A DNA stretch of 64,000 nucleotides from an uncultured Myxococcales bacterium (GCA_964400725.1 CAYNVS010000005.1:8632-72631); one strand, 5' to 3'. Shown: positions 6,052-25,304, counted from the stretch's first letter. The notes: a model not told the origin generated them from the sequence alone. A program made the numbers and translations.

Positions 6052-8379
6052 ATGAAAATCCGAAAAAAAATACGCGCGCGAGGCGTCGTGCAAGGAGTGG
6101 GAATGAGGCCGAACGTAAAAAAAATCGCCGACGCGCTCGGCCTTTTCGGCTTCGTCAAAAACGATAAATCGGGCGTTGAAATTGAGGTCGAGGGAGAAGA
6201 ACGCGCCGTTGAAGAGTTCGAGAGGCGCGTAATTTCCGACGCTCCGCCTTCCGCTAAAATCGACGAAACGATTTCGTCGCGGCTGCCTTATTTCGGCTAC
6301 GAGCGTTTCTCGATTGAAAAAAGCGGCTTAGACGCGGGCAAAAGCGTAAGCGTGCCGGTCGATTTGCCTACGTGCGGCGATTGCAAGGCCGAAATGCTGT
6401 CGGCGTCGGACAGACGCCGCGGTTACGCCTTTATAAACTGCACAAATTGCGGGCCTAGGTTTACGATAATAAAATCGCAGCCTTACGACCGGCCTGCGAC
6501 GACGATGTCTCGCTTCGAGATGTGCCCTCAATGCCGCGCCGAATACGAAGACGCCTCCGACAGACGATTTCACGCGCAGCCTATCGCATGCCCGACTTGC
6601 GGCCCGACGCTTACTTTAATGGACGCGCGCGGCGCGGTTATTGAATGCGGCGACCCGGTCGGACGCGTTATTGACGAAATAATAAAAGGCAAAATCGTCG
6701 CGATAAAAGGAATCGGCGGATTTCATCTAGCCTGCGACGCGCGCAACGATGACGCTATAGCGGCGCTGCGCGCGCGCAAACGCAGGGACGAGCGTCCGTT
6801 TGCCGTAATGTTTAGGAACGCGACGGAAATAAAAAAAGCCGCGCACGTTTCGCCGCAGGAAGAAAAGCTGCTCCTCTCGCTCCGCGCGCCGATAGTTATT
6901 TTAAAGCGCAAAACGCCTTTTCCCTTTCCCGAATCGGTTTGCGCCGGTCTCCCGACGATCGGGGCGTTTCTGCCGTACGCGCCCCTTCATACGCTTTTAT
7001 TCGAGAGCGAAAACTCGCCCGAAGGAATGGCGCTGGTTATGACCAGCTGCAACGTCCACGACGAGCCGATTGTCTATATCGACTCATTCGATTCAAAGAG
7101 GCTTGGGGAATTGGCCGATTTAATTCTTACGCACAACCGCCCAATTCTCGTCCGCTGCGACGATTCCGTCGCCGCGGTTTATTCGGGAGAGGAAACGGTA
7201 TTACGCCGCGCGCGCGGCTACGTTCCGCAGTCGCTTCGTTTTGCCGCTCCGTTTAAAAAAACGGTTCTCGCGGTCGGCGCCGAGTTGAAAAATACGGTTT
7301 GCCTTTGCTTCGAGGAGCATGCGGTATTGAGCCAGCACGTCGGCGATTTGCAGAACGTCGAAACGTTCGACGCCTTCCTTGAGACGATCGGACACTTAGA
7401 GGGGCTCTTCGAGACGCGGCCTGAACTTTTAGTCCGCGACGCGCATCCCGATTTCTTGTCGAGCCGATACGCGGCAGAGCGCGCCGAAAAGGAAGGGCTG
7501 CAAATAATTTCGCTGCAACACCACGCGGCGCACGCGCTTTCCTGCATCGCGGAAAACGGTCTGTTTGAAAAAAGCTGCCTATGCCTGACCTTCGACGGAA
7601 CCGGACTTGGCTCGGACGGCGCGGTTTGGGGCGGAGAAATTTTCGAGGCGACGCCGGATAAAATAAAACGCGCCGGGCATATCGAGTATTTCCCTCAGCC
7701 GTTCGGCGATAAGAGCGCCAGACTCCCTTGGACGACCGCGCTGTGCATGGTTCGCCGTTTTGCGCCCGAAATCCGGCCGCCCGACTCGGTAGCGCGTTAC
7801 GCGCAAAGCGGCGCGGGCAAAATTCTAGACGAAACGCTTAAGCGGGGAGCCGGCAAAATGCCGCGCTCAAGCTCTATGGGGCGCTTGTTCGACGCGGTTT
7901 CCGCGCTGCTGGACGTTAATACCGAAGCCTCTTACGAGGCGCAAGCGGCGATAGCGCTTGAAAGCGTTTCCTTGCCGGACGTAGGGCTTGACGACGCGTA
8001 CGACATGCCGGTCGAGAGCGAAGGCGGCTTATTCGTCGCGAGAATTGCGCCGTTGATTAAGGGAATCATCGCCGACGCGGCGCGCGGCGCGGACGTTTCG
8101 GAAGCCGGAGGCAGGTTTCACGCCGCGGTAGTTTCTTCGTTTTCCTCAATGGCCGAGGCTTTGAGGGAAAAAAGCGGCATTAATAATATTGTGTTGTCCG
8201 GCGGATGTTTTTTAAATAGAATACTCGCCGAGAGATTTACCGCCGAATTGAAAAAACGCGGCTTCGACGTTTACGCCCATCGAACGGTTCCGCCCGGAGA
8301 CGGCGGCGTCTCGCTGGGTCAGGCGTATTACGCATGGAGATTGCAAAATGTGCATGGCTATACCTATGAAAGTTACTGA
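6052..8379 (+). CDS. hypF: [NiFe]-hydrogenase maturation carbamoyltransferase HypF
   Basis: Acylphosphatase-like N-terminus (VQGVGMRP). Two CxxC zinc-finger pairs (CGDCKAE...CTNCGPRF; CPQCRAEY...CPTCGP). YrdC-like and Kae1-like C-terminal domains. 775 aa. Confidence 0.93.
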   Translation: MKIRKKIRARGVVQGVGMRPNVKKIADALGLFGFVKNDKSGVEIEVEGEERAVEEFERRVISDAPPSAKIDETISSRLPYFGYERFSIEKSGLDAGKSVSVPVDLPTCGDCKAEMLSASDRRRGYAFINCTNCGPRFTIIKSQPYDRPATTMSRFEMCPQCRAEYEDASDRRFHAQPIACPTCGPTLTLMDARGAVIECGDPVGRVIDEIIKGKIVAIKGIGGFHLACDARNDDAIAALRARKRRDERPFAVMFRNATEIKKAAHVSPQEEKLLLSLRAPIVILKRKTPFPFPESVCAGLPTIGAFLPYAPLHTLLFESENSPEGMALVMTSCNVHDEPIVYIDSFDSKRLGELADLILTHNRPILVRCDDSVAAVYSGEETVLRRARGYVPQSLRFAAPFKKTVLAVGAELKNTVCLCFEEHAVLSQHVGDLQNVETFDAFLETIGHLEGLFETRPELLVRDAHPDFLSSRYAAERAEKEGLQIISLQHHAAHALSCIAENGLFEKSCLCLTFDGTGLGSDGAVWGGEIFEATPDKIKRAGHIEYFPQPFGDKSARLPWTTALCMVRRFAPEIRPPDSVARYAQSGAGKILDETLKRGAGKMPRSSSMGRLFDAVSALLDVNTEASYEAQAAIALESVSLPDVGLDDAYDMPVESEGGLFVARIAPLIKGIIADAARGADVSEAGGRFHAAVVSSFSSMAEALREKSGINNIVLSGGCFLNRILAERFTAELKKRGFDVYAHRTVPPGDGGVSLGQAYYAWRLQNVHGYTYESY

Positions 8380-8581
8380 AATTTCGGGCGCGGACGGAAA
8401 GTGCGAACTTTCCGGCGTGTCGCGAAGCGTCAGATTCGATCTCGTTCCGTCGGTCAAGATAGGCGATTACGTCCTAGTTCACGCCGGTTTCGCCATCGAG
8501 ACTATAGACGAGGATGAAGCGCAAAGAACGCTTGAATTATTCAAAGAGATGCTGGGCGGCGAAGAAGCGCCGGCAAGCTGA
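8348..8581 (+). CDS. hypC: hydrogenase maturation factor HypC
   Basis: The canonical MCMAIPMKV N-terminus has Cys2. 77 aa. Overlaps the hypF 3' end by 32 nt, indicating translational coupling. Confidence 0.9.
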   Translation: MCMAIPMKVTEISGADGKCELSGVSRSVRFDLVPSVKIGDYVLVHAGFAIETIDEDEAQRTLELFKEMLGGEEAPAS

Positions 8582-8588
8582 GGCGCGA

Positions 8589-9692
8589 ATGCCCGACAAA
8601 CTTAACGAACTCTTAAAAGGCTTTAAAGACAAATCGGCCGCGGAAGCGGTCGCGGCGCGCATAAAAGCCTCGGCGGCCAAAACCGACCGCGCGATAACGC
8701 TTATGGAAGTCTGCGGCACGCACACGATGAGCATAGCCAAGTTCGGAATCCGCTCGCTGCTGCCCGCAAACGTCAGGCTCGTAAGCGGGCCGGGCTGCCC
8801 CGTCTGCGTTACCCCTGCCGGCTACCTTGACGCCGCGTTTGAATTCGCCGCGAAGCCTAACGCGGTTATCGCCACCTTCGGAGACATGATGCGGGTTCCG
8901 GGCGGCGAGACGTCGCTTGAGCGCGAAAAGGCTAAGGGAGCGGACGCGCGCGTCGTTTATTCTCCGCTAGAGGCGCTTTCAATAGCGCAGGCAAACCCCG
9001 ATAAAGAAGTCGTCTTTCTCGCAATCGGCTTCGAGACGACAATTCCCGCCGTCGCCGCAACTTTAAATATTGCCAAGAGCCAAGGGATTAAAAATTTTTC
9101 GATATTGTGCGGGCACAAAATAGTGCCGCCGGCTTTGACCGCGCTTATGAGTATGCCCGATTTGAAGATTGACGGCTTTTTGCTGCCGGGACATGTTTCG
9201 GTTATTTTGGGCAGCGACGTTTACCGCGAACCGCTGGCGGCGCGCGGCGTCGGCGGAGTCGTCGCCGGTTTCGAGCCGCTGGACATACTCGCCGCCATTT
9301 CCGCTTTGGTCGAGGCCGCGGCCAATGGCCGCTTCGTCGTTGAGAATTCGTATTCCCGCGCCGTTCGACCGCAGGGTAATTTAGCGGCTCTGGCGCTCAT
9401 CGAACGGACGTTCGAGCCGGCCGATTCAATTTGGCGGGGGCTCGGCAAAATCCCGCTTTCTGGGCTGGCCTTAAGAAACGATTACAAAGAGTTCGACGCC
9501 GCGCTGAAGTTTGGCCTGGACGCGGATAAGCCGGAACGCCCGACCGCCTGCCGCTGCGGAAGCGTCCTTACCGGCGCTATAACGCCCGACGAGTGCCCGC
9601 TGTTCGGCAAAGCCTGCAATCCGTCTTCGCCCGTCGGGGCCTGCATGGTAAGCAGCGAAGGAACCTGCGCCGCTTATTACAAATACGGCTGA
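8589..9692 (+). CDS. hypD: hydrogenase maturation factor HypD
   Basis: Motifs CGTHTM, GPGCPVC and the C-terminal CPVC-type Fe-S motif are present. Start placed at ATG 8589 just after the hypC stop; the track ORF 8514 start overlaps hypC. Confidence 0.88.
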   Translation: MPDKLNELLKGFKDKSAAEAVAARIKASAAKTDRAITLMEVCGTHTMSIAKFGIRSLLPANVRLVSGPGCPVCVTPAGYLDAAFEFAAKPNAVIATFGDMMRVPGGETSLEREKAKGADARVVYSPLEALSIAQANPDKEVVFLAIGFETTIPAVAATLNIAKSQGIKNFSILCGHKIVPPALTALMSMPDLKIDGFLLPGHVSVILGSDVYREPLAARGVGGVVAGFEPLDILAAISALVEAAANGRFVVENSYSRAVRPQGNLAALALIERTFEPADSIWRGLGKIPLSGLALRNDYKEFDAALKFGLDADKPERPTACRCGSVLTGAITPDECPLFGKACNPSSPVGACMVSSEGTCAAYYKYG

Positions 9693-12747: not shown

Positions 12748-14007
12748 CTACTTGTTTTCAACGAAAGTAATCGTCAGCAGATAAATCTGCGTTCCTTTTT
12801 TACTGGTCTGTCCCGACAGCCACGTCGTATCCGTCATATCGAGCGGATTGGTGTAATTCGCCAGTAAAAAGGCATGCGCGTCGATGCGGCGGACGGCCAT
12901 GAAAGCGTTGTCGCCGCAGCCCGGCAAATCAAATACTTTTTCTACTTTGCGGGCGTCGCGGTTGATTTTATACAGCGCGCTCCCCTTGGGGCGCAGCGAA
13001 TAATCGACCAAATACTTGCTTTTTTGCTCGTCGAACGTCAACTCGCTTTTTCCTTGGTCGTAGGGGCCGCCTACGTCCCGGCGCGCGGCGAGGTAAATAT
13101 CGTTTCCGTGCCGAAACATCTCCGGCGAGTCGTAACGGTTTGGATCGCTTTTAGGCGAACATTCCCACTCCGAAAGAGCGTTTTTAGGCGCAAAGCAAAC
13201 GTGCGAACCGAAACCGGTCGCGTCGCCGTCCTCGTTGCGGGTAACGGCCCAAAGGTTTCCTTCGGCGTCGAACTCGAACGCGACTTCCGACACGCCCCCC
13301 TTGTAAACGTAATCCTTGCCGTTTACCTTTGTAAAGTTCTCGCCGTCTTCCGACTCTTTAAAATAAACTTCAATCTCCGAAGTTCCCGTCTCGTAATGGT
13401 TTCCTTTATAGGAAGTCATATAAACCCTGCCGTTGCGGACTTTTATGTCCCACGGAACTTCGCCGGCGTCAACCGCAAGCTCCGGCGCGCTCCAATCGCC
13501 GAGAGAGGCTCGCTTCACGCGCCACATCCCTTTAGGCTCGAAGGTAAACATGTCCGTTCCCGCCTCGAAGAAATACAGCCATATCCGGCCTTTGTAAGCC
13601 AGAAAGCGCGGCTCGCGCACGTCGGCGTCAACCGCTATTTCGCTCTCGAACTCCCACGTGGCGCCTTGGTCGAGGGATGAGGCGATTAACATTCGCGTAT
13701 ATTCGGAGGCGAAGTGATTGGGAGCGGTGCGCCACGCCATAAAAAGGCGGCCGTCGAAAAAGATAATATCGACGTTGTTGTTGGAGGCTTCGAGTTTGAT
13801 GGACGAGGGCAGCCCGGCGGAGGGAACGACCCAGCGGGGGGCGGAGGCTTGGGGCGTATACGTCTTATGATCGTCCGTAAAGTAATCGCCGGGGTCGTCG
13901 GATGGCACTTCTCCCGGCGCATCCGCGGAAGACGAGCCAGACGAACAACCGGTTAATAAGCAAAGCTCGGCGGCGGCGGCCAATAAAACGATAGCGATTA
14001 CGCGCAT
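12748..14007 (-). CDS. BNR/Asp-box repeat lipoprotein (sialidase-like beta-propeller)
   Basis: Lipobox LLTGCSSGSSS. Asp-box motifs SLDQGATWEF and SEDGENFTK. Confidence 0.55.
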   Translation of the reverse strand: MRVIAIVLLAAAAELCLLTGCSSGSSSADAPGEVPSDDPGDYFTDDHKTYTPQASAPRWVVPSAGLPSSIKLEASNNNVDIIFFDGRLFMAWRTAPNHFASEYTRMLIASSLDQGATWEFESEIAVDADVREPRFLAYKGRIWLYFFEAGTDMFTFEPKGMWRVKRASLGDWSAPELAVDAGEVPWDIKVRNGRVYMTSYKGNHYETGTSEIEVYFKESEDGENFTKVNGKDYVYKGGVSEVAFEFDAEGNLWAVTRNEDGDATGFGSHVCFAPKNALSEWECSPKSDPNRYDSPEMFRHGNDIYLAARRDVGGPYDQGKSELTFDEQKSKYLVDYSLRPKGSALYKINRDARKVEKVFDLPGCGDNAFMAVRRIDAHAFLLANYTNPLDMTDTTWLSGQTSKKGTQIYLLTITFVENK

Positions 14008-14057
14008 GGTTTGTTCCTTGAATGGTTTGACCGAGTTATATAATTATTGACTTAAAC

Positions 14058-14837
14058 CTATTTAAATTTTCCAAAATAGCCGTCGATTTCAGGTCTTAAT
14101 TCAATGCCGGCCATTTCAAAGCAATCAAGCAATTCGTCGTAAGTATTTTGCCCGCCCAGAAAATCCCAGAATTCGCGCCCGACCATCAATTCGCCGTCAA
14201 AATCGAGCATGCCTTTTAACGTCCATCGTTCGTATGGTTCCGGCTCGTAAGGATTGTAAGGAATAGCAATGCAGGACTGAACTTTTGCGGCTGGATATTC
14301 CGTTAAATAAAGCGCCGCCCACTCAAGCAGCGTGCGTTTAAAATCCTTGAAATTGCTCACGTTCGGTGTTGCCGTTTTTAAATCAAACATGTAAACCGTT
14401 CCGTTTTTGCTTTTTAAAAACAAATCAACTTTTACGGTTTTCAAAGCGTTTTTCTGACCGCTCTTACAAAATTTTCTAATTCTTTCAATTTCTTCCAATT
14501 TGTTAGGAGCGCTGTTTTTGCTTGTTGATAAATGATTTATAATACGTTGAATTTCTTTTTGCGCGTCTTCGTAAATAGCGTTTGGCAATTTATATTGTTT
14601 TTCCGCAGCTTCAAAAGTTGTTTTCGCAATCGCAACCGCTACCGGTTCATATATTGAGGTTCCGAATGTTGTATTGAGCGATTGTATAAAAGAAAATAAA
14701 GCCATTCTATCTTTTCCTAAAAGCCTGTAATGGAAAGGCATAGAATTGGTTTCCGGAGTATAGTTTTTGAATTTTTCTCTGAGAACGCTTGTAATGATAT
14801 TCTTGATTTCGATTTTTTGGTTAGAAGAAAAGGGCAT
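14058..14837 (-). CDS. type II restriction endonuclease candidate (PD-(D/E)xK fold)
   Basis: Low-GC gene immediately downstream of the methyltransferase (taaATG junction). The putative catalytic motif is VDLFLKSKNGTVYMFDLK, i.e. D...DxK. Confidence 0.5.
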   Translation of the reverse strand: MPFSSNQKIEIKNIITSVLREKFKNYTPETNSMPFHYRLLGKDRMALFSFIQSLNTTFGTSIYEPVAVAIAKTTFEAAEKQYKLPNAIYEDAQKEIQRIINHLSTSKNSAPNKLEEIERIRKFCKSGQKNALKTVKVDLFLKSKNGTVYMFDLKTATPNVSNFKDFKRTLLEWAALYLTEYPAAKVQSCIAIPYNPYEPEPYERWTLKGMLDFDGELMVGREFWDFLGGQNTYDELLDCFEMAGIELRPEIDGYFGKFK

Positions 14838-15213
14838 TTATTTTTCCTTTAGATGAAAAATAATTTCGGCATAGGCGGTAGATCTGTCCTTTTCGACGCG
14901 GTTTAATACCGGCCTCTTGAATCGCTCGACAATTTTCATTCCCGATTTTTCCGCAATTAGCGGATAAAGATTAAATTTATCGTTGGCTACCAAAAAAACA
15001 TCATAATTATCTTGAAGATATTTTTTGCAATTATTTAAAACCGAGGATATTCCAGCCGCATACGCTTCCTTGGCGGCTTTTGTCTGTCCGTTTAAAAGAC
15101 GTCCTATTTCTTGTTCGTCTTTTCTTTCAAATCCAAATATTTCATACGCGTAAGCGTGCTGCTCGTGGTAATCAATTACCCCGACATATGGAGGACTGGA
15201 GAAAATGCCCTTA
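14838..15213 (-). CDS. DNA methyltransferase C-terminal catalytic segment (motif IV SPPY) in +1 frame relative to the upstream segment
   Basis: Translation KKKKIKGIFSSPPYVGVIDYHEQHAYAYEIFG... shows SPPY (motif IV), typical of N6-adenine/N4-cytosine MTases. The segment has no start codon of its own. It opens right after an in-frame stop inside the A8 tract and ends at a taa directly abutting the REase ATG. Confidence 0.6.
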
Positions 15214-16440
15214 ATCTTTTTTTTCTTTTATAAGTTCAGCCAATTTGGCGTTTTTTTGTTCGACTTCGGCTATTAAATCAACGGTAGAGCTGTCCGCCGC
15301 CAAACAAATTTGGAATGTATCCGTTCTTAATTTATCAAATTCAATAATTCTTTTTATGGAATCGTTCGAATATCTTATCCACCAGTCTAGAATTGAGAAC
15401 AACGGTTTGCATATTTTGCCGTGTTTCTTGCAGTAATATGTTCGAGTTACAGGTTCCTTTAAAGTGCCTAAATCGGCGTGAGTCGTAGCCCTGCACGACC
15501 TAGCGGTGCGGCTTAAAATAACCGCTAAAACTTTTTTAAGGTTTTTATCCTCAACGTTTTTAATTTCATTAAAAACAAAGTCGATTTCGTTTCTAACCGG
15601 CAGTAAGTACCATGTCGCCAGAAAAGAGTCGTTTTCTTTTTTGTATATTTCCAACTTGTATTCTTCAACCAAAGAATAGTATATAGGAAGAAATTCATTC
15701 TCACATCGCGTCGAATACTCGCCCTCTTCAATTTCTTTCAAATTGATTTTACGTCTATAATCGGGAGACGGAAAATATTTCTCGTTAAATTTATCAAGTT
15801 CGCATTGCAGTCTCTTTTCAAAAGCGGCGTTTATATTGTTTTTATTAAATTCAATTAATTTAACCGTTATCTGATTGATTATTCTGTTTAGTCTGGCAAC
15901 GTCATGTCGTTCTATTTTTACGTTTGAAATCATAGCGTTAAAGGCCGAAATATCCGCTCCTACCGCATGAATTCCCAATTCATTTGCCTGCACAAGCGTG
16001 GTTCCGCTTCCGGCAAAAGGATCTAAAATAATATCGCCTTTTGTAAAATATATAGTCTTTTTATAGTCGTCGACGCGCGAGTCCAGAAAATATTCCACTA
16101 ATTGCGGAATGAATTTACCTTTATATGGATGGATACGATGGACGTGTTTAGTTCGTTCAGATTCAGAATATTCCGAAAATGATAATTTCCAATTTAAATC
16201 TTCGCCCAGCGCTTTTTTCCAATCGCATTCGTTTTTAATTTGGTCGTAATAACTTTTCAGCTCATTAATATCTACGCAGGTCGAGCCGTTAAATGAATAT
16301 TTTTTTACTTTGCCGTATTGCAGCAAATAAGAAATATTTGAAATCGAAACCGGACGATTATTATATTGCGTCGCCCAAACGCTTGCTTCTTTCAGCTTTA
16401 CAAGACTTGCGTCTTTGTCTTCGGAAGTTCTGAAAACCAT
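15211..16440 (-). CDS. DNA methyltransferase N-terminal segment (motif X/I DPFAGSGTT plus TRD), alpha-class organisation; interrupted by frameshift
   Basis: HPYKGKFIPQLVEYFL...ILDPFAGSGTTLVQANELGIHAVGADIS gives the AdoMet-binding motif I block. About 270 aa of variable TRD follows. The ORF ends ...AELIKEKKD at the A8 run, with the SPPY segment in the next frame. Confidence 0.7.
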   Translation of the reverse strand: MVFRTSEDKDASLVKLKEASVWATQYNNRPVSISNISYLLQYGKVKKYSFNGSTCVDINELKSYYDQIKNECDWKKALGEDLNWKLSFSEYSESERTKHVHRIHPYKGKFIPQLVEYFLDSRVDDYKKTIYFTKGDIILDPFAGSGTTLVQANELGIHAVGADISAFNAMISNVKIERHDVARLNRIINQITVKLIEFNKNNINAAFEKRLQCELDKFNEKYFPSPDYRRKINLKEIEEGEYSTRCENEFLPIYYSLVEEYKLEIYKKENDSFLATWYLLPVRNEIDFVFNEIKNVEDKNLKKVLAVILSRTARSCRATTHADLGTLKEPVTRTYYCKKHGKICKPLFSILDWWIRYSNDSIKRIIEFDKLRTDTFQICLAADSSTVDLIAEVEQKNAKLAELIKEKKD

Positions 16441-16544
16441 TAAAATTAACTTCTTTTCATTTTAAAGCTATAAAAACTAAACAACGATACAACGTTTTTC
16501 CTAATAGAGTCAAGCATAAGCTATTGCTATATAATTATATAGCG

Positions 16545-18746
16545 TTATAACCCCGCCCTCGCTACCTTTATAACGCCGCGCACTCGCCGCAGGGCCGCAA
16601 CAAGCTTCTCAAGCTCGGCTACGCCGTTTACGTGCGCGGTAAAAATCATCGTGGCGGCGGCGTCAACGGTTTGCAAGTCGGCGGCGACAATGTTTACGCT
16701 CATTTTCCTAAAAACCTCGCCAATGGCCGAAAGCATTCCGGGCTTGTCCGCCGTGGTTACGCGCAGCCGAACGCGCATCGCGCCCCCTTGGCCCGCCCAC
16801 TTCGCGCTGACAAGCCGGTCGGGTTCGTTGCGCGGAACGCGGTCGCAGTCCCGGCGATGCACGGTTACCCCGCGCCCGCGGGTTATATAGCCGATTATTT
16901 CGTCCCCTACTATCGGAGAGCAGCAGCGCGCGTAATTTACCAACATGCCGCCAACCCCTTCGATTATCACGTCCCCCTTCAGTTTGCCGGCGCTCGCGGG
17001 CATCTGCGCGGGCTCGACGTCCTGCGCGTTCACCAAATCTTCAATGCGCTCCTCAACCGCGACGAAGACTTCGCGTTCCGGCAGCAACATTTTTACCAAA
17101 GAAGACGCGGTCAGCGTTCCGCGGCCCAGACACAAATATAAGTCGTCAATCGTCCGTTTGTTGGTTTTTTCCAACATTTGAGCCACCGCGGTCTGGTCTT
17201 TTAGCGCCTTTGAGAGGCTCGTATCCTTTTCCTTCAGCGCCTTTTCCAGCAGCTCGCGCCCCAGCTCTTTGTCCGCCTCGCGCCGCTCTTCGGTGAGAAA
17301 GTGCTTTATTTTGGCCTTGGCGCGCTCGGTTTTGACTATATTTAGCCAGTCCTTCGACGGTTTCCCCTTCGGGTGAGTGATTATCTCGACGGTGTCGCCG
17401 TTCTTCAACGCGGCGTCTATCGTGCTTATGCGCCCGCCGATTTTCACCCCCACGCACCTGTCGCCGACGCTGGAGTGAATCGCGTAAGCGAAGTCGAGAG
17501 CCACGGCGCCCTTCGGCAGCTCGCGGACGTCTCCTTTGGGAGTAAAGACGAACACCTCGTCGTCGAACATGTCGGTGTGCAGCGCGTCGAGCAGCGCCGG
17601 ATCGGACAAGTCCTTGCCCGCGGCTATGGCTTCGTGCAGAGAGCCGTAGCTCTTTACCCCGTCGGCTTTTACCTTTCCTTCTTTATAAATCCAGTGCGCC
17701 GCTACGCCGTGCTCCGCGATTTCGTGCATTTCGCGGGTGCGGATTTGTATCTCTATCCGCTCGGCGTTTGGGCCGATGACCGCCGTATGCAGCGATTGAT
17801 AGCCGTTAGGCTTGGGCGCGGCTATATAGTCGTCGAACTGCCCCGGTATAGGGCGGTAGGCGGAGTGAACCATGCCTAGAACCTGGTAGCATTCGTGTTT
17901 TTCTTCCACGATGACGCGAAAGGCGGTAATATCGTAAAGTTCGTCAAAGTCCAGCTTGCGGCGTTCCAGTTTTTTTTGAATCGACCAGAAATGTTTCGGT
18001 CTGCCCGAAATTTGTCCTTTTATTCCCGCATCTGCGAGCAGTTTTGAAAGCTCTTCCTTAACGTTGGATATGTATTCCTCGCGGGCGCTTCTTTTAAGGG
18101 CGACGAGGCTTTTAAGCTCGTTGTAACGCTCCGGCTCTAAAAATCGAAACGCTAAATCCTCCAGCTCGCTTTTTATGGAATAAACTCCCAAACGATTTGC
18201 GAGCGGCGCGTATATCTCTATGGTTTCCTTGGCTATTTGCAGCCTCACGTCCGGTTCGAGGTATTGCAGCGTGCGCATGGAGTCGAGCCTGTCGGCGAGT
18301 TTGATAAGCAGAACGCGTATGTCTTTTGCGAGCGTGAGCACGAGGCGTCGGAAGCTCTCCGGCTGGTTTGAGCCGCCGTGGCGGTAGCTGTACTTGCTTA
18401 TCCTCGCCGCGCCCGCCACTATCTCGGCCGTTTTAGAACGAACTTCCGGCAGGGACGCGATTTCTTCCAAGGTAGTTTTTTCCTCCTCAAACGGCGCAAG
18501 CAGCAGCGCGCCTTGAAGAGACGACAAATCGAGCTTCAGCTCCGACAGCGACAACGCCATTCCAAGCGGGTGAACGACGAACGGATCGCCGGATGCGCGC
18601 TTCAAACCCTCAAGTTTATTGTGAGAAAATTCAATCGCCGCCGAGAGCATGAGCATCTCGTCCGGTTTGAGATAAGCGCCGGCGTTTTCAATTAGAGCAA
18701 ACTTAAGCTGCTCCGCCGTCGCTCTTTTTATGTCCGAAATCGACAT
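16545..18746 (-). CDS. relA: RelA/SpoT-family (p)ppGpp synthetase with degenerate HD hydrolase motif
   Basis: Synthetase motifs LYDITAFRVIV and YQSLHT, with TGS and ACT C-terminal domains. The hydrolase HD dyad is replaced (FVVHPLGMA...LLLAPFEEE instead of LLHDvvEDT). 733 aa. Confidence 0.85.
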   Translation of the reverse strand: MSISDIKRATAEQLKFALIENAGAYLKPDEMLMLSAAIEFSHNKLEGLKRASGDPFVVHPLGMALSLSELKLDLSSLQGALLLAPFEEEKTTLEEIASLPEVRSKTAEIVAGAARISKYSYRHGGSNQPESFRRLVLTLAKDIRVLLIKLADRLDSMRTLQYLEPDVRLQIAKETIEIYAPLANRLGVYSIKSELEDLAFRFLEPERYNELKSLVALKRSAREEYISNVKEELSKLLADAGIKGQISGRPKHFWSIQKKLERRKLDFDELYDITAFRVIVEEKHECYQVLGMVHSAYRPIPGQFDDYIAAPKPNGYQSLHTAVIGPNAERIEIQIRTREMHEIAEHGVAAHWIYKEGKVKADGVKSYGSLHEAIAAGKDLSDPALLDALHTDMFDDEVFVFTPKGDVRELPKGAVALDFAYAIHSSVGDRCVGVKIGGRISTIDAALKNGDTVEIITHPKGKPSKDWLNIVKTERAKAKIKHFLTEERREADKELGRELLEKALKEKDTSLSKALKDQTAVAQMLEKTNKRTIDDLYLCLGRGTLTASSLVKMLLPEREVFVAVEERIEDLVNAQDVEPAQMPASAGKLKGDVIIEGVGGMLVNYARCCSPIVGDEIIGYITRGRGVTVHRRDCDRVPRNEPDRLVSAKWAGQGGAMRVRLRVTTADKPGMLSAIGEVFRKMSVNIVAADLQTVDAAATMIFTAHVNGVAELEKLVAALRRVRGVIKVARAGL

Positions 18747-18797
18747 GCGCCGCCTTGCAACTTCCTGAATAAAAGCGGCTTTTTAACCGCGGTTTCG

Positions 18798-20510
18798 TCA
18801 GTCGGCGAGCAGCTTTTTAAGGCTGGTGAGAATATTCAAAGGCGTAAAATCCTTGGCGCGCTCGCTCTTTTCAATAATGTAGGTAATTATCTCTTTGGTT
18901 TTGTCAAGAGAATCGTTGATGACTATGTAATCGAACTTAGCGTACTGCCTAATTTCGGCCTTAGCGATGGAAAGCCTTCTCTCAATCTCTTTGGGGTCGT
19001 CGGTTTTGCGCTCGCGCAGGCGGCGGGCGAGCTCTTCGTACGAAGGCGGCAGGATGAAAATAAGCTCCGCGTTGGGGAAGCGCTTGCGTATCCCGTCGGC
19101 GCCCTGAACGTCTATGTCCAGCACGGCGTTTTTACCGGCGTTGAGTATATCGTTGACCGACCGCCAAGAAGTTCCGTAATAGTGAAGCCCGTACACGAAC
19201 GCGTGCTCCGCAAATTCGTCGTTCTCGACCATTTTTTTAAAGGTCGTCTCGTCGACAAAGTGATACTCCCGTCCGTTTTGCTCGTTGCCGCGCGGCTTGC
19301 GCGTGGTGTGGCTTATCGAAAGCGAGAAATCGGGAAATCGCTCAACGATGAAGTTGCAAATTGTGGACTTCCCCGCGCCCGACGGGGCGGATACGACTAG
19401 AACTCGCGGAGGGGGAAGTTTATCGTCAATGGTAAAGTCATCTGAGTTGGACTCGTGTGAAATTTTATTTGCAATGTTAGAATCATCTTGATCAATCATC
19501 GAAGGCTCTTCATCCTGACTAGGAAGATATTTTAACAAATTATAGATTTCTTTATGTTCTCTGGGCATGCAAGATCGGGAGTCGTTACAGATATAAGGCT
19601 CAATAATCCCAAGCTCAGAAGGAAGTTGGTCTCTAATTTTTCTTAAATCATTTTGAAATTCTTCATCCTTGATTTGCATTGGATCTGGGTTTCGCCATTT
19701 AAAAAGTTTCACATTTAACTCTGTTTCCCAATGATTTGGTCTAATGGGATTAGAGTAAGTGACCCAAATAATAGGATAAGGGAAATCATTCCAAACTCCT
19801 TTAAGTTTTTCATAGCCAACAATTTTACCTTTAATAGCACAGGGAATACTTTTTTCACCAAGTAATTGAGCTAAATCTAGAGAGATTACCATTAATTCCG
19901 TATAAGAATATTTTGAAATCCTAAAGCCTATGTCAATTTCTGGGCCAATATAATCAATAACTTTATTTTCGCCTTCATTGCCGGCACTTAATGATAACTC
20001 AATTTCTCGATTTCTAATTGGAAAACCTGCTGTCCAGCCCGCACCTTTTAGCCGCAAACTTGGTTTGGAAATACCCTCAATAGTTTTTAAAAAACATTCA
20101 GTAATATTTGTTATCTCTTCACGGTTGTCTACAGCGTAGGTGTAAAGTAACTCATCGCCCAATATTTTCCAGATCCTTCCTTTTTCAAGCAATTTTTTTT
20201 CTGTTTTTCTAAGATGTTGTTTAAACTGACTATTAAACTGCTTAAAAGTTGTTTCTATGACAGTTTGCCAATTATAAGTCTCTTTGGTGATGTTTGCTAA
20301 TATATGTCCTATACCACTTTTATTATCTAAATTTTTATATAAACAATCGCTTGGAGATATATTGTTCGCCTCTAGGTAGGATAGGACAATGTCTTTCCTT
20401 TCCTTATATATTTTTAGAAGGCGTTCATGGTTAAATACGGATTTTAAAGCGGTCGAATTTTCTATATCAACACTTAGAAACAGCCTAAATGTCGGTTTTA
20501 AAGCTTGCAT
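18798..20510 (-). CDS. gmk: chimeric protein: novel low-GC N-terminal region (aa 1-370, weak nucleotidyl-cyclase-like D...GD...R motifs) fused to guanylate kinase (aa 375-570)
   Basis: C-terminus VLVVSAPSGAGKSTICNF...HTTRKPRGNEQNGREYHFV...YGTSW...LDIDVQG is canonical Gmk encoded in GC-rich DNA. The N-terminal ~1.1 kb is conspicuously AT-rich and encodes FRLFLSVDIENSTAL...WKILGDELLYTYAV...IDYIGPEIDIGFRISKYS. It is one continuous ORF. Confidence 0.7.
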   Translation of the reverse strand: MQALKPTFRLFLSVDIENSTALKSVFNHERLLKIYKERKDIVLSYLEANNISPSDCLYKNLDNKSGIGHILANITKETYNWQTVIETTFKQFNSQFKQHLRKTEKKLLEKGRIWKILGDELLYTYAVDNREEITNITECFLKTIEGISKPSLRLKGAGWTAGFPIRNREIELSLSAGNEGENKVIDYIGPEIDIGFRISKYSYTELMVISLDLAQLLGEKSIPCAIKGKIVGYEKLKGVWNDFPYPIIWVTYSNPIRPNHWETELNVKLFKWRNPDPMQIKDEEFQNDLRKIRDQLPSELGIIEPYICNDSRSCMPREHKEIYNLLKYLPSQDEEPSMIDQDDSNIANKISHESNSDDFTIDDKLPPPRVLVVSAPSGAGKSTICNFIVERFPDFSLSISHTTRKPRGNEQNGREYHFVDETTFKKMVENDEFAEHAFVYGLHYYGTSWRSVNDILNAGKNAVLDIDVQGADGIRKRFPNAELIFILPPSYEELARRLRERKTDDPKEIERRLSIAKAEIRQYAKFDYIVINDSLDKTKEIITYIIEKSERAKDFTPLNILTSLKKLLAD

Positions 20511-20518
20511 TATCGGGG

Positions 20519-21040
20519 TTAATCGTTAAAAAGTGTTTTTGATCTTATTTCTATTGCATGGACAGAAACCCTAAAAAATGAGGACAGCAAACTTTTATCC
20601 GCAGAAAGTTCTTTGTATTTTTTTTCAAAAACAATTTTAGGCATCAAAAAGGCAGCGGCGAATCTGTTAGCTTGCCATTCCTCTTTATTTGATCCTTGCC
20701 GATAGAATGTTATTGGTTCTTCTTCGCCTGTTTGAGCGTCATAATGTAAAAAATAATGACCTAACTCATGCGCAATGGTAAAATTATCTCTTAGAGAAGT
20801 ATCAAAAGGGACTAATAAAATCGAGAAATCGTTTTTCTTTCGAATAATTAATGACGCCGGAGAAAAAATATTATCCGACAAAGACTCAATCTTTCCACCG
20901 AGAAGATTTACAACAGTATTTAGAAATGGTCTAACCTCATCTTCATACTTATTCGCATCTTTTTCAAAATGCATTCTAGCTTTGCCAGCTAAAGCCTCTA
21001 TTTTTTCATTACTGAAAAAAAGTAGTTTTTTTCTACCCAT
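20519..21040 (-). CDS. ImmA/IrrE-family (DUF955) zinc metallopeptidase
   Basis: HEXXH-type signature FTIAHELGHYFLHYDAQ. Start set at the second ATG (MGRKKLLFF), which is preceded by GAGAGGAGAG. Low-GC gene 8 nt upstream of the chimeric gmk gene. Confidence 0.65.
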   Translation of the reverse strand: MGRKKLLFFSNEKIEALAGKARMHFEKDANKYEDEVRPFLNTVVNLLGGKIESLSDNIFSPASLIIRKKNDFSILLVPFDTSLRDNFTIAHELGHYFLHYDAQTGEEEPITFYRQGSNKEEWQANRFAAAFLMPKIVFEKKYKELSADKSLLSSFFRVSVHAIEIRSKTLFND

Positions 21041-21170
21041 ATTAGCTCTCCTCTCAACAAACACACAATAATATTAAAAAGCTTAACCAGCTTCTTGTCA
21101 AGCGATATTATAAAATTATAACAAATTAAATAATATTAAGCCAATATTAAGGCTTGTTTAACAAGATAAA

Positions 21171-22793
21171 TTACTTGATATTCCACGTTTTCCAATCTCC
21201 GGGGGGCGGCATGACCGGATTTTCCTTGAAAGCCCTTACCACCGCCTCGAAGACGGTAACGCCCATGTCTATCGACGGGCTCTTTTTCAGCATGTAATAT
21301 CCGTCGCCGCCGTTAGCCAAAAAAGTTATGGTTGCGACGGAGTACGTTTTATCGACCTCCAGCGGACGGCCTCCTATCATCACGCGGTAAATTTTGCCGT
21401 CTTTTGCGTAAACGCGCGCCCCCGCAAGCTGCAAAAAGCCTCCTTTGAGCTTCGCTTCCTTGTCGAGCCTCGAAAGGGACTCCGAAAGTATCATCAGCAG
21501 TTTGTCGCCGGTCATTTCAAGCCGCAGTATTTGGTTGGGAAAAGGCAGCGCGGAAACGATGTCGAGGTAACGCACGTCTCCTTTTTCAATCGGAGCGCGA
21601 ATCGCTCCGGAATTTATAAACCCGACGTCCGCCTTCCCTTCTTTTCTTATTATCTCGGCTATCATGGTTCCCAGCTCGAAACTTCCCGCCTCGCCGCCGT
21701 GATCGTAATTTAAAGCAAGGTCTTTCGTCAGCTCGCCCGCCTTTTGCGGCATCGAATTTTTCGCCAGCGAAACGAATTTCTCGACTATTATTTCAACCTG
21801 CGGGTCTTTTTCAATTTTCTCGGTTACAAATATCTCGCGCGCTTCTTCCACGTAAGAAGAGCCGCCTTCAAGAATAATTTTAATCTTTCCAACGATTCCT
21901 CCGTGCGCCTGAGCCTGCGCGACGAATATTCCGCGCCCCTTGGGCGGCGTGATTAGTTTGTGCGTGTGTCCGCCGACAACGCCCAATATGGGAATGGGCG
22001 TATTCGTTTTGGAGAGCTTCTCCGCAAGCGCAAAGTCTTCCTCGTCTCCCATGTGCGAAACGATTAAGACGTAATCGTGAGTCTCCGCAAGCGTAGGCAG
22101 CAAAGAGTCAAGCGTTTCCATCGGATCGGCGAAAGCTAGTCCTTCTACGTTTTTCTCGTCCGTCAACAGCGGCGTCTGAGCGTTGGCAATGCCGACGAGA
22201 GCGATTTTCTTTCCGCCTTTCGTAAAAAAGCTGGCGTAGGGCGCGAAAAGCGGCTTTCGCGTTCCTTCGTATAAAATGTTCGCCGCGATAATCTTAAACT
22301 CCGCGCCGCGAGCGAGCTGTAAAAGGCGCTCCTTGCCGTAATCGAACTCGTGGTTGCCCACGGTCATTACTTCCAGCCCTACCGCGTCCATCGCCTTAAA
22401 TTCCGCCATCCCTTTGGTAAAAAGAGACTGCGGAGTCCCTTGCATAACGTCTCCGGCGGCTATAAAAAGCGCGTCGCATCCCAAAGAATCGGCTTCCGCC
22501 TTCTCTGAGTTGATTACCGTTTTAATGCGGGACGCTCCTCCGCGGTAACTTCCGGCTCCCGCGCCGGTAGGGGTAATATGGCAGTGAAAGTCGTTGATGT
22601 GAAGAATTACAAGACATTGTTTGGAGTTGTCGGAAACTAAAGAAGGAGCCTGCCCGCACGAAAAAAATACCGCCGCCGAAACGGCTATTAAAACAAGCGC
22701 CAACTCAAACGCAAAAAAGTTCGGTTTGCCTCTTTTTATTACGCTTCCGCCCCCAGCCGCCGGCTCGTTCGCCGATAAAAACATTTTATTCAT
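21171..22793 (-). CDS. bifunctional metallophosphatase / 5'-nucleotidase (UshA family), secreted
   Basis: LHINDFHCHI and GNHEFDYG metallophosphoesterase motifs, N-terminal TM/signal segment, and a C-terminal 5'-nucleotidase domain. Confidence 0.85.
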   Translation of the reverse strand: MNKMFLSANEPAAGGGSVIKRGKPNFFAFELALVLIAVSAAVFFSCGQAPSLVSDNSKQCLVILHINDFHCHITPTGAGAGSYRGGASRIKTVINSEKAEADSLGCDALFIAAGDVMQGTPQSLFTKGMAEFKAMDAVGLEVMTVGNHEFDYGKERLLQLARGAEFKIIAANILYEGTRKPLFAPYASFFTKGGKKIALVGIANAQTPLLTDEKNVEGLAFADPMETLDSLLPTLAETHDYVLIVSHMGDEEDFALAEKLSKTNTPIPILGVVGGHTHKLITPPKGRGIFVAQAQAHGGIVGKIKIILEGGSSYVEEAREIFVTEKIEKDPQVEIIVEKFVSLAKNSMPQKAGELTKDLALNYDHGGEAGSFELGTMIAEIIRKEGKADVGFINSGAIRAPIEKGDVRYLDIVSALPFPNQILRLEMTGDKLLMILSESLSRLDKEAKLKGGFLQLAGARVYAKDGKIYRVMIGGRPLEVDKTYSVATITFLANGGDGYYMLKKSPSIDMGVTVFEAVVRAFKENPVMPPPGDWKTWNIK

Positions 22794-22813
22794 CCGCCGC
22801 CGTCAACCCGCGA

Positions 22814-23884
22814 TCAATCGGCCGCCAACGGCCTTTCTTCTTCCATTTTAACCAGCCGCGCCGCCGCAAACCCTTTATCTACCTTAACCTTTCCTCCGCC
22901 GCGTTCCGGCGCGTCGAATAGAACGTCGCTCATAATTTCCTCTATGATGCCGCGAAGGGCGCGCGCTCCCAGCTTTTTTTTATGAGCGTATTCGGCTATT
23001 TCCCAAAGAGCCTCGTCCTCAAACGCAAGCTCTACGTTGTCTCGCGACAGCAGCTCTACGTACTCTTTCACGACGCTGTCAGGCGGGTCTTTTAAAATGC
23101 GGAACAACGCCTCGGCGTTCAAAGCGTCGAGCTCTACCACCACCGGAATGCGCCCCAGAAGCTCCATTATCATTCCGTATTCGGTCAGCTTTTTAACCGT
23201 AAGGCGTCTGACGGTTTTCTCTTTTTTGGCGTTAAAGCCAATCCCGCCTTGGTCCCGGTAATCCCAAACGTCGCTGAAGGTGCCCGCGCAAATGAAGAGA
23301 ATATTTGAGGTATCGACCTGCGTGAAGTCGTGCTTGCTCCAGTGCTGCGTTACGTCCAGCGGGACGAATATTTTCCTCCCTTCAATTATTTTAAGAAGAG
23401 CCTGCTGCACGCCCTCGCCGCCGATGTCGCGCGAGCCCGCGCCGGTGCGCATTCCGCCGTTGCGGCGCGCCAGTTTATCTATTTCGTCTATGAAAATTAC
23501 GCCGCGCTCGCATTCGGCGACGTCCAGTTCGCAGGCGAACAGCAGCTCGCCCACCATGACTTCCACGTCTTTGCCGTAGTAACCCGCCTCGGTGTACTCG
23601 GTGGCGTCGGCGACGGTCATTTTAACGTCAAGTATGCGCGCTATGTGCCTTGCAATGTGCGTCTTGCCGCAGCCGGTAGGCCCGGCTAAAAGAATGTTTG
23701 ACTTGCGAAGAAGCGTGTTCTCGCCCGCCGTTACTGCGTTGACTCGTTTTATATGATTGTAGGCCGCTATTGCAACCGCTTTCTTGGCGTTATCCTGCCC
23801 GACGACGTATTTGTCCAGCTCTTCGTAAATCTGCCGCGGAAAAAGCGGAGGAAGAGATTTTTTTACTTGATGCTTTAAAACCAT
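22814..23884 (-). CDS. clpX: ClpX-like AAA+ unfoldase lacking the N-terminal zinc-binding domain
   Basis: LPPLFPRQIYEELDKYVVGQDNAKKAVAIAAYNHIKR, Walker A GPTGCGKT, pore loop GYYG and IGF loop (GGIGFNA) are all ClpX-like. Starting from MVLKHQ (RBS GAGAGG) there is no C4 zinc finger. Confidence 0.75.
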   Translation of the reverse strand: MVLKHQVKKSLPPLFPRQIYEELDKYVVGQDNAKKAVAIAAYNHIKRVNAVTAGENTLLRKSNILLAGPTGCGKTHIARHIARILDVKMTVADATEYTEAGYYGKDVEVMVGELLFACELDVAECERGVIFIDEIDKLARRNGGMRTGAGSRDIGGEGVQQALLKIIEGRKIFVPLDVTQHWSKHDFTQVDTSNILFICAGTFSDVWDYRDQGGIGFNAKKEKTVRRLTVKKLTEYGMIMELLGRIPVVVELDALNAEALFRILKDPPDSVVKEYVELLSRDNVELAFEDEALWEIAEYAHKKKLGARALRGIIEEIMSDVLFDAPERGGGKVKVDKGFAAARLVKMEEERPLAAD

Positions 23885-23994
23885 ATGCGACCTCTCGGCG
23901 TAAAAAAACAAATTTACAGCCGCAGTTTATATTACTAGACAAAAAATTTAAAGAAATTAGTTTAACGCCGCGGGAAAAGTTGAGAAGGCGGAAA

Positions 23995-24072
23995 TGGAGG
24001 GAACGCTCGGAATTGAACCGAGAACCTTCGGGGCCACAACCCGACGCTCTAACCAGGTTGAGCTACGTTCCC
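23995..24072 (-). tRNA. tRNA-His (anticodon GTG), CCA encoded, no encoded G-1
   Basis: Manual fold: acceptor GGGAACG/CGTTCCC, D-arm GCTC-AACCTGGTTA-GAGC, anticodon stem TCGGG/CCCGA with loop TTGTGGC, variable loop AGGTT, T-arm CTCGG-TTCAATT-CCGAG, discriminator T, then CCA. Confidence 0.8.
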
Positions 24073-24289
24073 TCGGAACAATGTTTATATAGTCCGCGGC
24101 TCTTTCGTGTCAAGAAAATTTTTGATTTTCCCGCGTTCGCGTCCGGCTTATTTTTAGTTTTATTGAGTCAAATAGAAGCGGCGCGGCTTTTGCGTCCAAG
24201 TTTAACGTAAACTATAAACGCTTTCGCGGCAGGGCGCGTTCGCCTCCGAATGCCGCTTTTTCGCTTTCGCTGCCCGCCCAAAGAAAGAA

Positions 24290-24318
24290 AAGACGCCTCA
24301 TTGAGGCGTCTTTTTAAA
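24290..24318 (-). terminator. Rho-independent terminator downstream of cysK (potentially bidirectional)
   Basis: AGACGCCTCattgAGGCGTCT hairpin flanked by T/A runs, 18 nt below the cysK stop. Confidence 0.65.
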
Positions 24319-24335
24319 CGCGCGAAATAGTCCGC

Positions 24336-25304
24336 TTACGCGGTAATTCCCTCGAATAAAATCGTGGAAAGATAACGCTCGCCGGCGTCCGGCAAAATAA
24401 CCACAATCGTTTTGCCCTTGTTTTCGGGCAAGGCGGCAAGCCTTGCCGCAACCGCAGCCGCGGCTCCCGATGAAATGCCCGCCGTGATTCCCTCTTCCTT
24501 GTGCAGTCTTCTCGCAAACTCCACAGCTTCCTCGTTCTCGACGGTTTGAACGTCGTCAACCAAGCTCAAATCGAGGACGTCCGGCTTGAAGCCGGCGCCG
24601 ATGCCCTGAATTTTATGCGGCGAAGGCTTGGGCTCCTCTCCTTTGCGTATCGCCGTCAGCACGGGGGAAAACGCGGGCTCAACAGCGACGGACGCAATAT
24701 TTTTTCCGCGCTCTTTTTTAAAATAGCGCGAAACGCCGGTAATCGTGCCGCCGGTTCCCACTCCGGAAACGAAAATATCGACGTTTCCGTCGGTATCGTT
24801 CCAAATTTCGGGGCCGGTGGTTTTAAAATGAATTTCCGGGTTGGCCGGATTTTTAAACTGCTGCGGAACAAAGTATTTCGCGGGGTCGTTCGCGGCGATT
24901 TCTTCGGCCTTCGCCACCGCCCCTTTCATGCCTTTGGCGCCTTCGGTTAAAACTATTTCAGCGCCGAACGCCTTGAGCATCTTGCGCCGCTCAATCGACA
25001 TCGTTTCGGGCATTGTCAGTATTATGGGGTAATTACGGGCAGCCGCGGCAAAAGCCAAAGCTATGCCGGTGTTGCCGCTGGTCGGCTCGACAATCGTAAC
25101 GCTTCGGCTGCCGGGCTTCAATATTCCGTCCCGCTCCGCGGCCAGCACTAGCGCCGCGCCAAGCCTGCACTTGACCGAATACGCCGGGTTGCGTCCCTCT
25201 ATTTTAGCCAAAACCGTAGCGCCAAGCCCCTGCGTAACGCGGTTTAATCTCACCAGCGGCGTGTTTCCCACGCTCGAAATATTATCCTCGTAAATCCTCG
25301 CCAT
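24336..25304 (-). CDS. cysK: cysteine synthase A (O-acetylserine sulfhydrylase)
   Basis: PLP-dependent fold with [15 protein letters not shown] and the [10 protein letters not shown] glycine loop; 322 aa. Confidence 0.93.

Follow-up and report, generated by a model that had tools for sequence, protein, structure and literature searches.

A TdeIII-type restriction-modification cassette in an uncultured Myxococcales bacterium, with its methylase interrupted at a poly(A) tract that assembles in two lengths

A two-gene cassette with an interrupted methylase

The window, that is, the whole stretch of 64,000 nucleotides analyzed here (GCA_964400725.1, CAYNVS010000005.1:8632-72631), comes from an uncultured Myxococcales bacterium and contains a 2.4 kb island carrying a two-gene cassette, located between a 419-aa host gene and relA/spoT (Table 1). 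The low G+C content of the island (about 36%), compared with about 55% in the genome, points to a recent horizontal acquisition. No flanking repeats of note were found at the island.

Table 1 Features of the cassette. Positions are counted from the first letter of the window, and features on the minus strand are given in the sense direction.
Feature	Position	Strand	Basis or remark
Low-G+C island with the two-gene cassette	14050..16500	.	about 35-40% G+C, against about 55% in the flanks
Truncated methyltransferase ORF, 409 aa plus stop	16440..15211	minus	ORF translation
Motif I, DPFAGSGTT, residues 140-148	16023..15997	minus	
A8 homopolymer, frameshift site (T8 on the plus strand; in-frame allele A7)	15224..15217	minus	sequence
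Methyltransferase C-terminal catalytic part, +1 frame	15227..14838	minus	begins KKKKIKGIFSSPPY
Motif IV, SSPPY, in the +1 frame	15200..15186	minus	
Type II restriction endonuclease, TdeIII family, 259 aa	14837..14058	minus	Pfam RE_TdeIII
Codon ACA, Thr157 of the restriction enzyme	14369..14367	minus	three residues past D152-x-K154

The 409-aa ORF comprises an N-terminal part, the AdoMet-binding motif I, and a middle (target-recognition) region of about 240 aa. Its product was matched by Pfam N6_N4_Mtase (E 5.7e-14), which also hit the repaired protein around DPFAGSGTT, and by the PADLOC model MTase_II PDLC03249 (E 4e-157) only over profile positions 15-416 of 541. The sense strand at the end of the ORF reads ...CTT ATA AAA GAA AAA AAA GAT TAA, so that the product ends in ...AKLAELIKEKKD-stop, and the TAA (15213..15211) lies just past the A8 homopolymer. 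Motif IV was found in the +1 frame, where a TAA (15230..15228) is directly followed by AAG AAA AAA AAG ATT AAG GGC ATT TTC TCC AGT CCT CCA TAT, translated as KKKKIKGIFSSPPYVGVIDYHEQ... This frame is open for 129 codons and ends in ...IIFHLKEK before a TAA at 14840..14838. As neither ATG, GTG, nor TTG occurs ahead of SPPY in the +1 frame, the catalytic half could not be made as a separate protein. A previous sequence-only reading had described a restriction-modification methyltransferase whose 409-aa ORF breaks at the A8 run and whose SPPY motif continues in the +1 frame after a TAA, and our analysis agrees with it on each of these points. It had also proposed that the loss or the gain of a single A would restore a protein of about 533 aa. 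In silico, this held for the loss (A7, 533 aa) but not for the gain, since A9 leaves the frame broken; the addition of two A residues (A10) gave 534 aa.

In the repaired 533-aa protein, motif I (DPF(A/C)GSGTT in the alignment, residues 140-148) is followed by a conserved Cys/His-rich middle region of about 240 aa and then by SPPY (residues 415-418). Judging from the alignment of the repaired protein, this is the architecture of an alpha-type amino-methyltransferase, the class that had been proposed. The SPPY motif is presumably a hint of N4-cytosine methylation. In a PDB sequence search, solved beta-class N4/N6 methylases matched the motif I segment only. The family strongly conserves a segment at residues ~310-350 of the repaired protein (window ~15510-15390), RSCRATTHADL...YYCKKHGKICKP, in which Cys and His residues are invariant. 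This segment, for which no match to a solved structure was obtained, may form a module that binds metal and recognizes DNA.

The restriction gene looked intact in the sequence-only reading, and its 259-aa product indeed matched RE_TdeIII (PF09520) over positions 2-242 of 242 (E 1.3e-88, 297 bits for a cut-off of 27.2). The enzyme is 52-69% identical, over its full length, to enzymes adjoining intact methyltransferases, and it keeps D138, D152, and K154 (candidate PD-(D/E)XK residues) with a threonine at position 157. A PDB sequence search gave no useful relative of it. PF09520 was named 'HinfI' in a precomputed table and RE_TdeIII in hmmscan, an apparent labelling discrepancy. The stop codon of the methylase frame and the ATG of the restriction gene abut in the window (TAAATG, gap 0), and a Shine-Dalgarno-like sequence, AAGGAA, lies ahead of this ATG, inside the end of the methyltransferase frame.

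Several other features of the window were noted. The nearest relative of RelA/SpoT (16545-18746) among 5.8 billion proteins is only 53% identical, which indicates that the genome belongs to a poorly sampled lineage. The window also encodes the hydrogenase maturation proteins HypF (6052-8376) and HypD (8508-9689), a Lon protease, and a large formate-dehydrogenase/NuoG-like oxidoreductase. A second low-G+C island (18798-21200, minus strand, about 33-34%) contains a gene for a 184-aa IrrE/ImmA-type metallopeptidase (20522-21073; Pfam Peptidase_M78; PADLOC capP, E 1.6e-20), which shares 4 nt with the start of a 570-aa ORF (18798-20510). The N-terminal ~360 aa of this ORF are of low G+C content and gave no Pfam hit and a weak PADLOC hit (PDC-S46, E 5e-4), and residues 369-548 form a guanylate kinase domain of normal G+C content, fused in frame. 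The arrangement may represent a defence-type insertion fused to gmk.

The methylase family and its lysine-rich linker

Among the candidates scored, 7,999 proteins belonged to the methylase family at E <= 1e-5, and relatives were found in at least 592 genomes of bacteria and archaea in a scan using one genome per species. The best homologues, of about 534 aa, are 64-68% identical to the repaired protein with 98-100% query coverage. Neither the repaired 533-aa protein nor the 143-aa fragment encoded by an A7 contig (see below) had an exact match, and the nearest non-identical methylase is 68% identical, so that there were no sister strains for comparison. The repaired protein matched the ~534-aa homologues at E ~1e-243 over 98-100% of the length with no gap at the junction, which places the frameshift far beyond what would be expected by chance; gap-free alignments were obtained with thousands of ~534-aa proteins. 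In an alignment of 27 sequences, the junction, ELIKEKKIKGIFSSPPY, was aligned without a gap to the consensus EILxKQKIKGIFSSPPY, and all 80 of the species-representative homologues inspected were uninterrupted at the tract site.

The tract encodes a conserved lysine-rich linker (K-Q/K-K-I-K; K-x-K-I-K) located just before motif IV, and it is A-rich throughout the family because of these lysine codons. A6 was the commonest length in the 79 homologues analyzed, 11 of which had A7 to A9, every one of them in frame; the in-frame form of the window, GAA AAA AAG (A7), is the same as in the homologue L031. The poly(A) tract therefore resembles a by-product of coding, and the comparison gave no sign of lengthening or of upkeep as a repeat.

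Across 77 homologues, 34 columns of the C-terminal, out-of-frame part are invariant, and the window carried the family residue at every one of them; of 32 near-invariant columns, one deviated, a number equal to the median of the family. Such an undecayed sequence indicates that the frameshift is recent. The N-terminal part showed nine deviations at 64 near-invariant columns (median, three) and is among the more divergent members, but the whole lineage is divergent.

An intact C-terminal part would also fit continued selection on a product recoded from the A8 gene, as RNA polymerase slippage (-1 A or +2 A) or a +1/-2 ribosomal shift could provide a full-length, protective methylase. The two frames overlap productively over exactly the A run; in some bacteria, transcriptional slippage on runs of 8-9 A/T is productive, and disrupted genes have been found to contain slippage-prone runs at which slippage would restore the frame (PMC1088944). 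A run of eight is, however, borderline for the required shift, selection against such runs being typically seen from nine bases in many genomes, although eight bases work in some IS elements (PMC1088944). With E. coli RNA polymerase, no rescue by deletion was detectable on poly(A), and insertions need at least 8 As (PMC6260861). On the A AAA AAA heptamer, ribosomes would more readily shift by -1, into a dead frame, and none of the 80 homologues inspected has a frameshift at this site. Moreover, the A7 allele described below is a simpler account of the intact 3' part, and we regard recoding as highly improbable.

The layout of the cassette is also shared by its relatives. A TdeIII-like gene was located directly downstream at no fewer than 70 of the 80 homologous methylase loci, and the gap between the two genes ranged from -4 to +6 nt in 38 of the 52 loci measured. 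The genes do not abut in roughly one homologous cassette in four, where 120-325 nt separate them (L011, L017, L022, L030, L035, L040, L041, L051, L053, L056, L062, and L078). Several of these wide spacers open with a small ORF having a similar start (such as MDKDKVIYS, MNENRIIYS, or MRKDKVIYK), which could correspond to a small controller-like gene. At three other loci (L010, L075, and L016), a broken restriction gene, detected as a multi-piece or half-length tblastn match, sits beside a methylase that is intact. Decay usually takes this order; in the window the situation is the opposite, with an interrupted methylase.

Tract length in the metagenome assemblies

The A8 tract was found in three assemblies obtained with different software, namely the window, a Logan contig of 6.7 kb (L001, SRR6476076), and a JGI contig spanning window 15098-17982 (L002, 3300022666), the last two being identical to the window. 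The Logan run and the JGI sample may derive from the same library, in which case their A8 calls are not independent. A look-up with the restriction enzyme retrieved another contig of the same JGI sample, Ga0248168_1121667 (L083; 1295 nt, window 13976-15271), which has 174 nt in common with L002 and differs from the window in its A7 tract only, being otherwise 100% identical. This contig reads AELIKEKKIKGIFSSPPY across the tract in a single frame, which runs AEVEQKNAKLAELIKEKKIKGIFSSPPY... to the normal stop and the TAAATG junction. In the window, motif I and SPPY are not encoded in one uninterrupted polypeptide, as A8 splits the frame; in L083, the frame is uninterrupted across the junction. 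The sequence-only reading had called for a search for tract-length heterogeneity, and the two lengths assembled from one metagenome answer it indirectly, at the level of contigs.

The end of L002 lies exactly 127 nt from the first A of the tract and so coincides with the last A8-specific 127-mer, as expected of a branch in a k=127 assembly graph. No branch was seen in the contigs of JGI 3300022666 at four other 8-base runs (17970, 20193, 20618, and 22974). Single-base differences from the window were observed in two further contigs of this and related samples (L085 and L086), indicating some microdiversity in the population. A pattern scan of metagenome_contigs for A6-A12 variants gave no match, this collection lacking the JGI samples concerned. 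Between L002 and L086 (window 18469-24973), JGI 3300022666 has a 487-nt gap inside relA/spoT; the upper end of L002 is located 5 nt past the 8-base run at 17970-17977, and the gap looks like low coverage, not a graph branch.

Homopolymers are classic sites of indel errors, and it could be argued that the tract has a single true length, the other one arising from library-PCR or sequencing stutter or from assembly. A7 is represented by a single short contig whose start lies just 47 nt upstream of the tract, a sign that few reads contributed to it, and the assemblies possibly share reads. However, A8 was obtained with different software in all three assemblies, and the 47 consecutive A7-specific 127-mers of L083 require, assuming 150-nt reads, at least two concordant reads. 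Neither a break nor a frameshift was observed at the four other 8-base runs of the assembly or at eight such runs in the window, where eight 8-base and about 25 7-base A/T runs lie inside intact ORFs, so the assembly does not appear prone to homopolymer errors. As judged from the contigs, stutter is an unlikely source of A7, and an artefact of any of these kinds seems to us quite improbable.

The best reading of these contig-level data is that A7 and A8 are real, co-existing alleles, and we favour, as the probable explanation, a slipped-strand polymorphism of which the window represents the OFF allele. The ancestral ON allele, A7, would encode the intact 533-aa enzyme and co-exist with A8 in the same natural population, and A8 would be the OFF allele of a horizontally acquired TdeIII-type Type II operon in which the methylase gene precedes a tightly abutted restriction gene. 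Slipped-strand mispairing at replication is the most likely origin of the extra A. The 409-aa product, which retains the AdoMet-binding and middle regions and lacks motifs IV onward, would not methylate DNA, and the change would be recent and, in principle, reversible. A8 is presumably at least as abundant as A7. Several points weigh against this explanation: contingency tracts are typically longer than 7-8 As, an A7 allele represented by one short contig might stem from PCR or sequencing stutter, and a fully active restriction enzyme should kill OFF cells, yet the two single-path assemblies (the window contig and the Logan contig) both carry A8. These A8 assemblies indicate that OFF cells are apparently viable, and an extra assumption is therefore needed, whether a weak enzyme, polarity, or another protecting methylase.

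A polymorphism of this kind might also be selected, as a true phase-variable contingency switch with high-frequency A7 (ON)/A8 (OFF) flips, which would give methylated and unmethylated subpopulations and possibly toggle the cassette through translational coupling. The two alleles, from the same sample, differ in tract length only, the downstream part is undecayed, the genes meet at TAAATG, nothing resembling a promoter was detected from the tract to the restriction gene, and Type II precedents exist (bioRxiv 10.64898/2026.01.10.698759; PMC3936762). As in contingency loci, a repeat inside the ORF sets the frame (A7 in, A8 out), and two lengths are found, at the contig level, in one population. 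However, among relatives the repeat is neither maintained or lengthened nor recurrently ON and OFF: A6 prevails, longer tracts are all in frame, and the lysine codons of the conserved linker explain the tract. Only two lengths were seen, in one assembly, and a run of 7-8 As is near the lower limit for slippage at a high rate. AAGGAA would permit independent initiation of the restriction gene, and the predicted RNA fold at its start is no better than in shuffled sequence (z = -1.1). We consider such a switch unlikely, and a loss-of-function polymorphism at a mutational hot spot more likely. Of the three options offered by the sequence-only reading, a slipped-strand variable tract is thus favoured by the A7 and A8 contigs of one metagenome, a plain sequencing error is disfavoured, and no evidence was obtained for a selected Mod-like switch.

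Tolerance of the nuclease and comparison with known systems

Several mechanisms might allow cells with the A8 allele to tolerate the nuclease. Its expression may fall when translation stops ~370 nt upstream of its gene, whether by polarity or because coupling is lost, an effect reported for another methylase gene with a frameshift (PMC6260861). The abutting stop and start codons and the lack of a promoter-like site after the tract lend slight support to such a coupling; a promoter/terminator scan detected no more sites than in shuffled sequence. AAGGAA could, nevertheless, support independent initiation, and the RNA fold mentioned above does not favor coupling. Alternatively, the genome may be protected by another methylase, or trace amounts of the full-length enzyme may be made through slippage.

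The nuclease itself may also be weak. Position 157, occupied by threonine in the window and in the A7 contig L083, is a lysine in 55 of 55 close homologues and, in 84 diverse representatives, a lysine in 75 and a threonine in two. Seven of these 84 lack K157 yet have K154, so that lysines 154 and 157 look partly interchangeable in this sample, where either may be missing. We therefore regard Thr157 as a possible weakening of the enzyme rather than as an inactivating lesion. A role of K157T as an inactivating change had been entertained, and was downgraded to uncertain in view of this interchangeability and of the natural occurrence of Thr157.

Going further, the tract might act as a fail-safe master switch of the whole Type II operon, the A8 form both truncating the methylase and, as translation would end ~370 nt before the restriction gene, silencing the nuclease by polarity or for want of coupling. 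An uncultured, deeply branching bacterium would then be able to toggle its entire defence system off and on without self-killing. We regard this as very doubtful.

Under the slipped-strand polymorphism that we favour, what looks like a frameshift pseudogene when a genome is assembled from a metagenome can be one of the alleles of a natural ON/OFF polymorphism, the other being recoverable from the debris of the same assembly. The locus also provides, in an uncultured lineage, a case of a two-gene Type II system in which the methylase, instead of the nuclease, is interrupted, and it raises a testable question, namely how OFF cells escape self-restriction. Annotation of such a gene should record a frameshift at a variable homopolymer, and the gene should be neither silently repaired nor discarded.

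Treponema denticola carries the TdeIII system (R.TdeIII = TDE0911), of which horizontally transferred relatives have been described (PMC3467074, PMC12878829), including a homologue in Helicobacter pylori PeCan4 reported by Furuta et al. (PMC3467074). The cassette of the window resembles this system in its end-to-end RE_TdeIII match, its two-gene Type II organization with an adjacent methylase, and its horizontal spread, seen here in the low-G+C island and in the wide distribution of relatives. It differs in its frameshifted methylase and in the threonine found at Lys157, and it was placed in the family by the Pfam model.

Genes rescued by slippage (IS elements, Citrobacter tssM, and M2.MboII deltaA356) likewise have an A/T run exactly in the overlap of two frames (PMC1088944, PMC4256274, PMC6260861). 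In the window, however, the run is only eight bases long, the deletion needed is the change made least efficiently by the bacterial polymerase (PMC6260861), and the frameshift is not conserved in relatives.

Homopolymer-controlled methylases are already well known, and what is new here is that a single metagenome yielded both alleles. Many H. pylori methylases are switched at homopolymers (PMC3936762). As in phasevarions (Type III mod, Type IIG, and H. pylori methylases), a repeat inside the ORF shifts the frame and populations are mixed (PMC3936762). Phasevarion enzymes are usually orphan or fused restriction-modification proteins, so that the OFF state is harmless, and their tracts are longer and conserved as repeats, whereas the tract of the window is a by-product of the lysine linker and is not conserved as a repeat.

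The closest parallel is NlaIV, a Type II system of Neisseria, in which a poly-A tract of 9 (+/-3) in nlaIV_M undergoes shifts giving short forms (bioRxiv 10.64898/2026.01.10.698759). In both systems, the methylase of a Type II system is a separate protein, and a coding poly-A tract, made of lysine codons, sets full-length or truncated forms. The protein families are unrelated, and the tract is longer in NlaIV than the 7 or 8 As found here. NlaIV also has a safe route to the OFF state, as nlaIV_E carries its own poly-T tract, whereas the restriction gene of the window has no interrupting tract; most Neisseria isolates keep the methylase ON.
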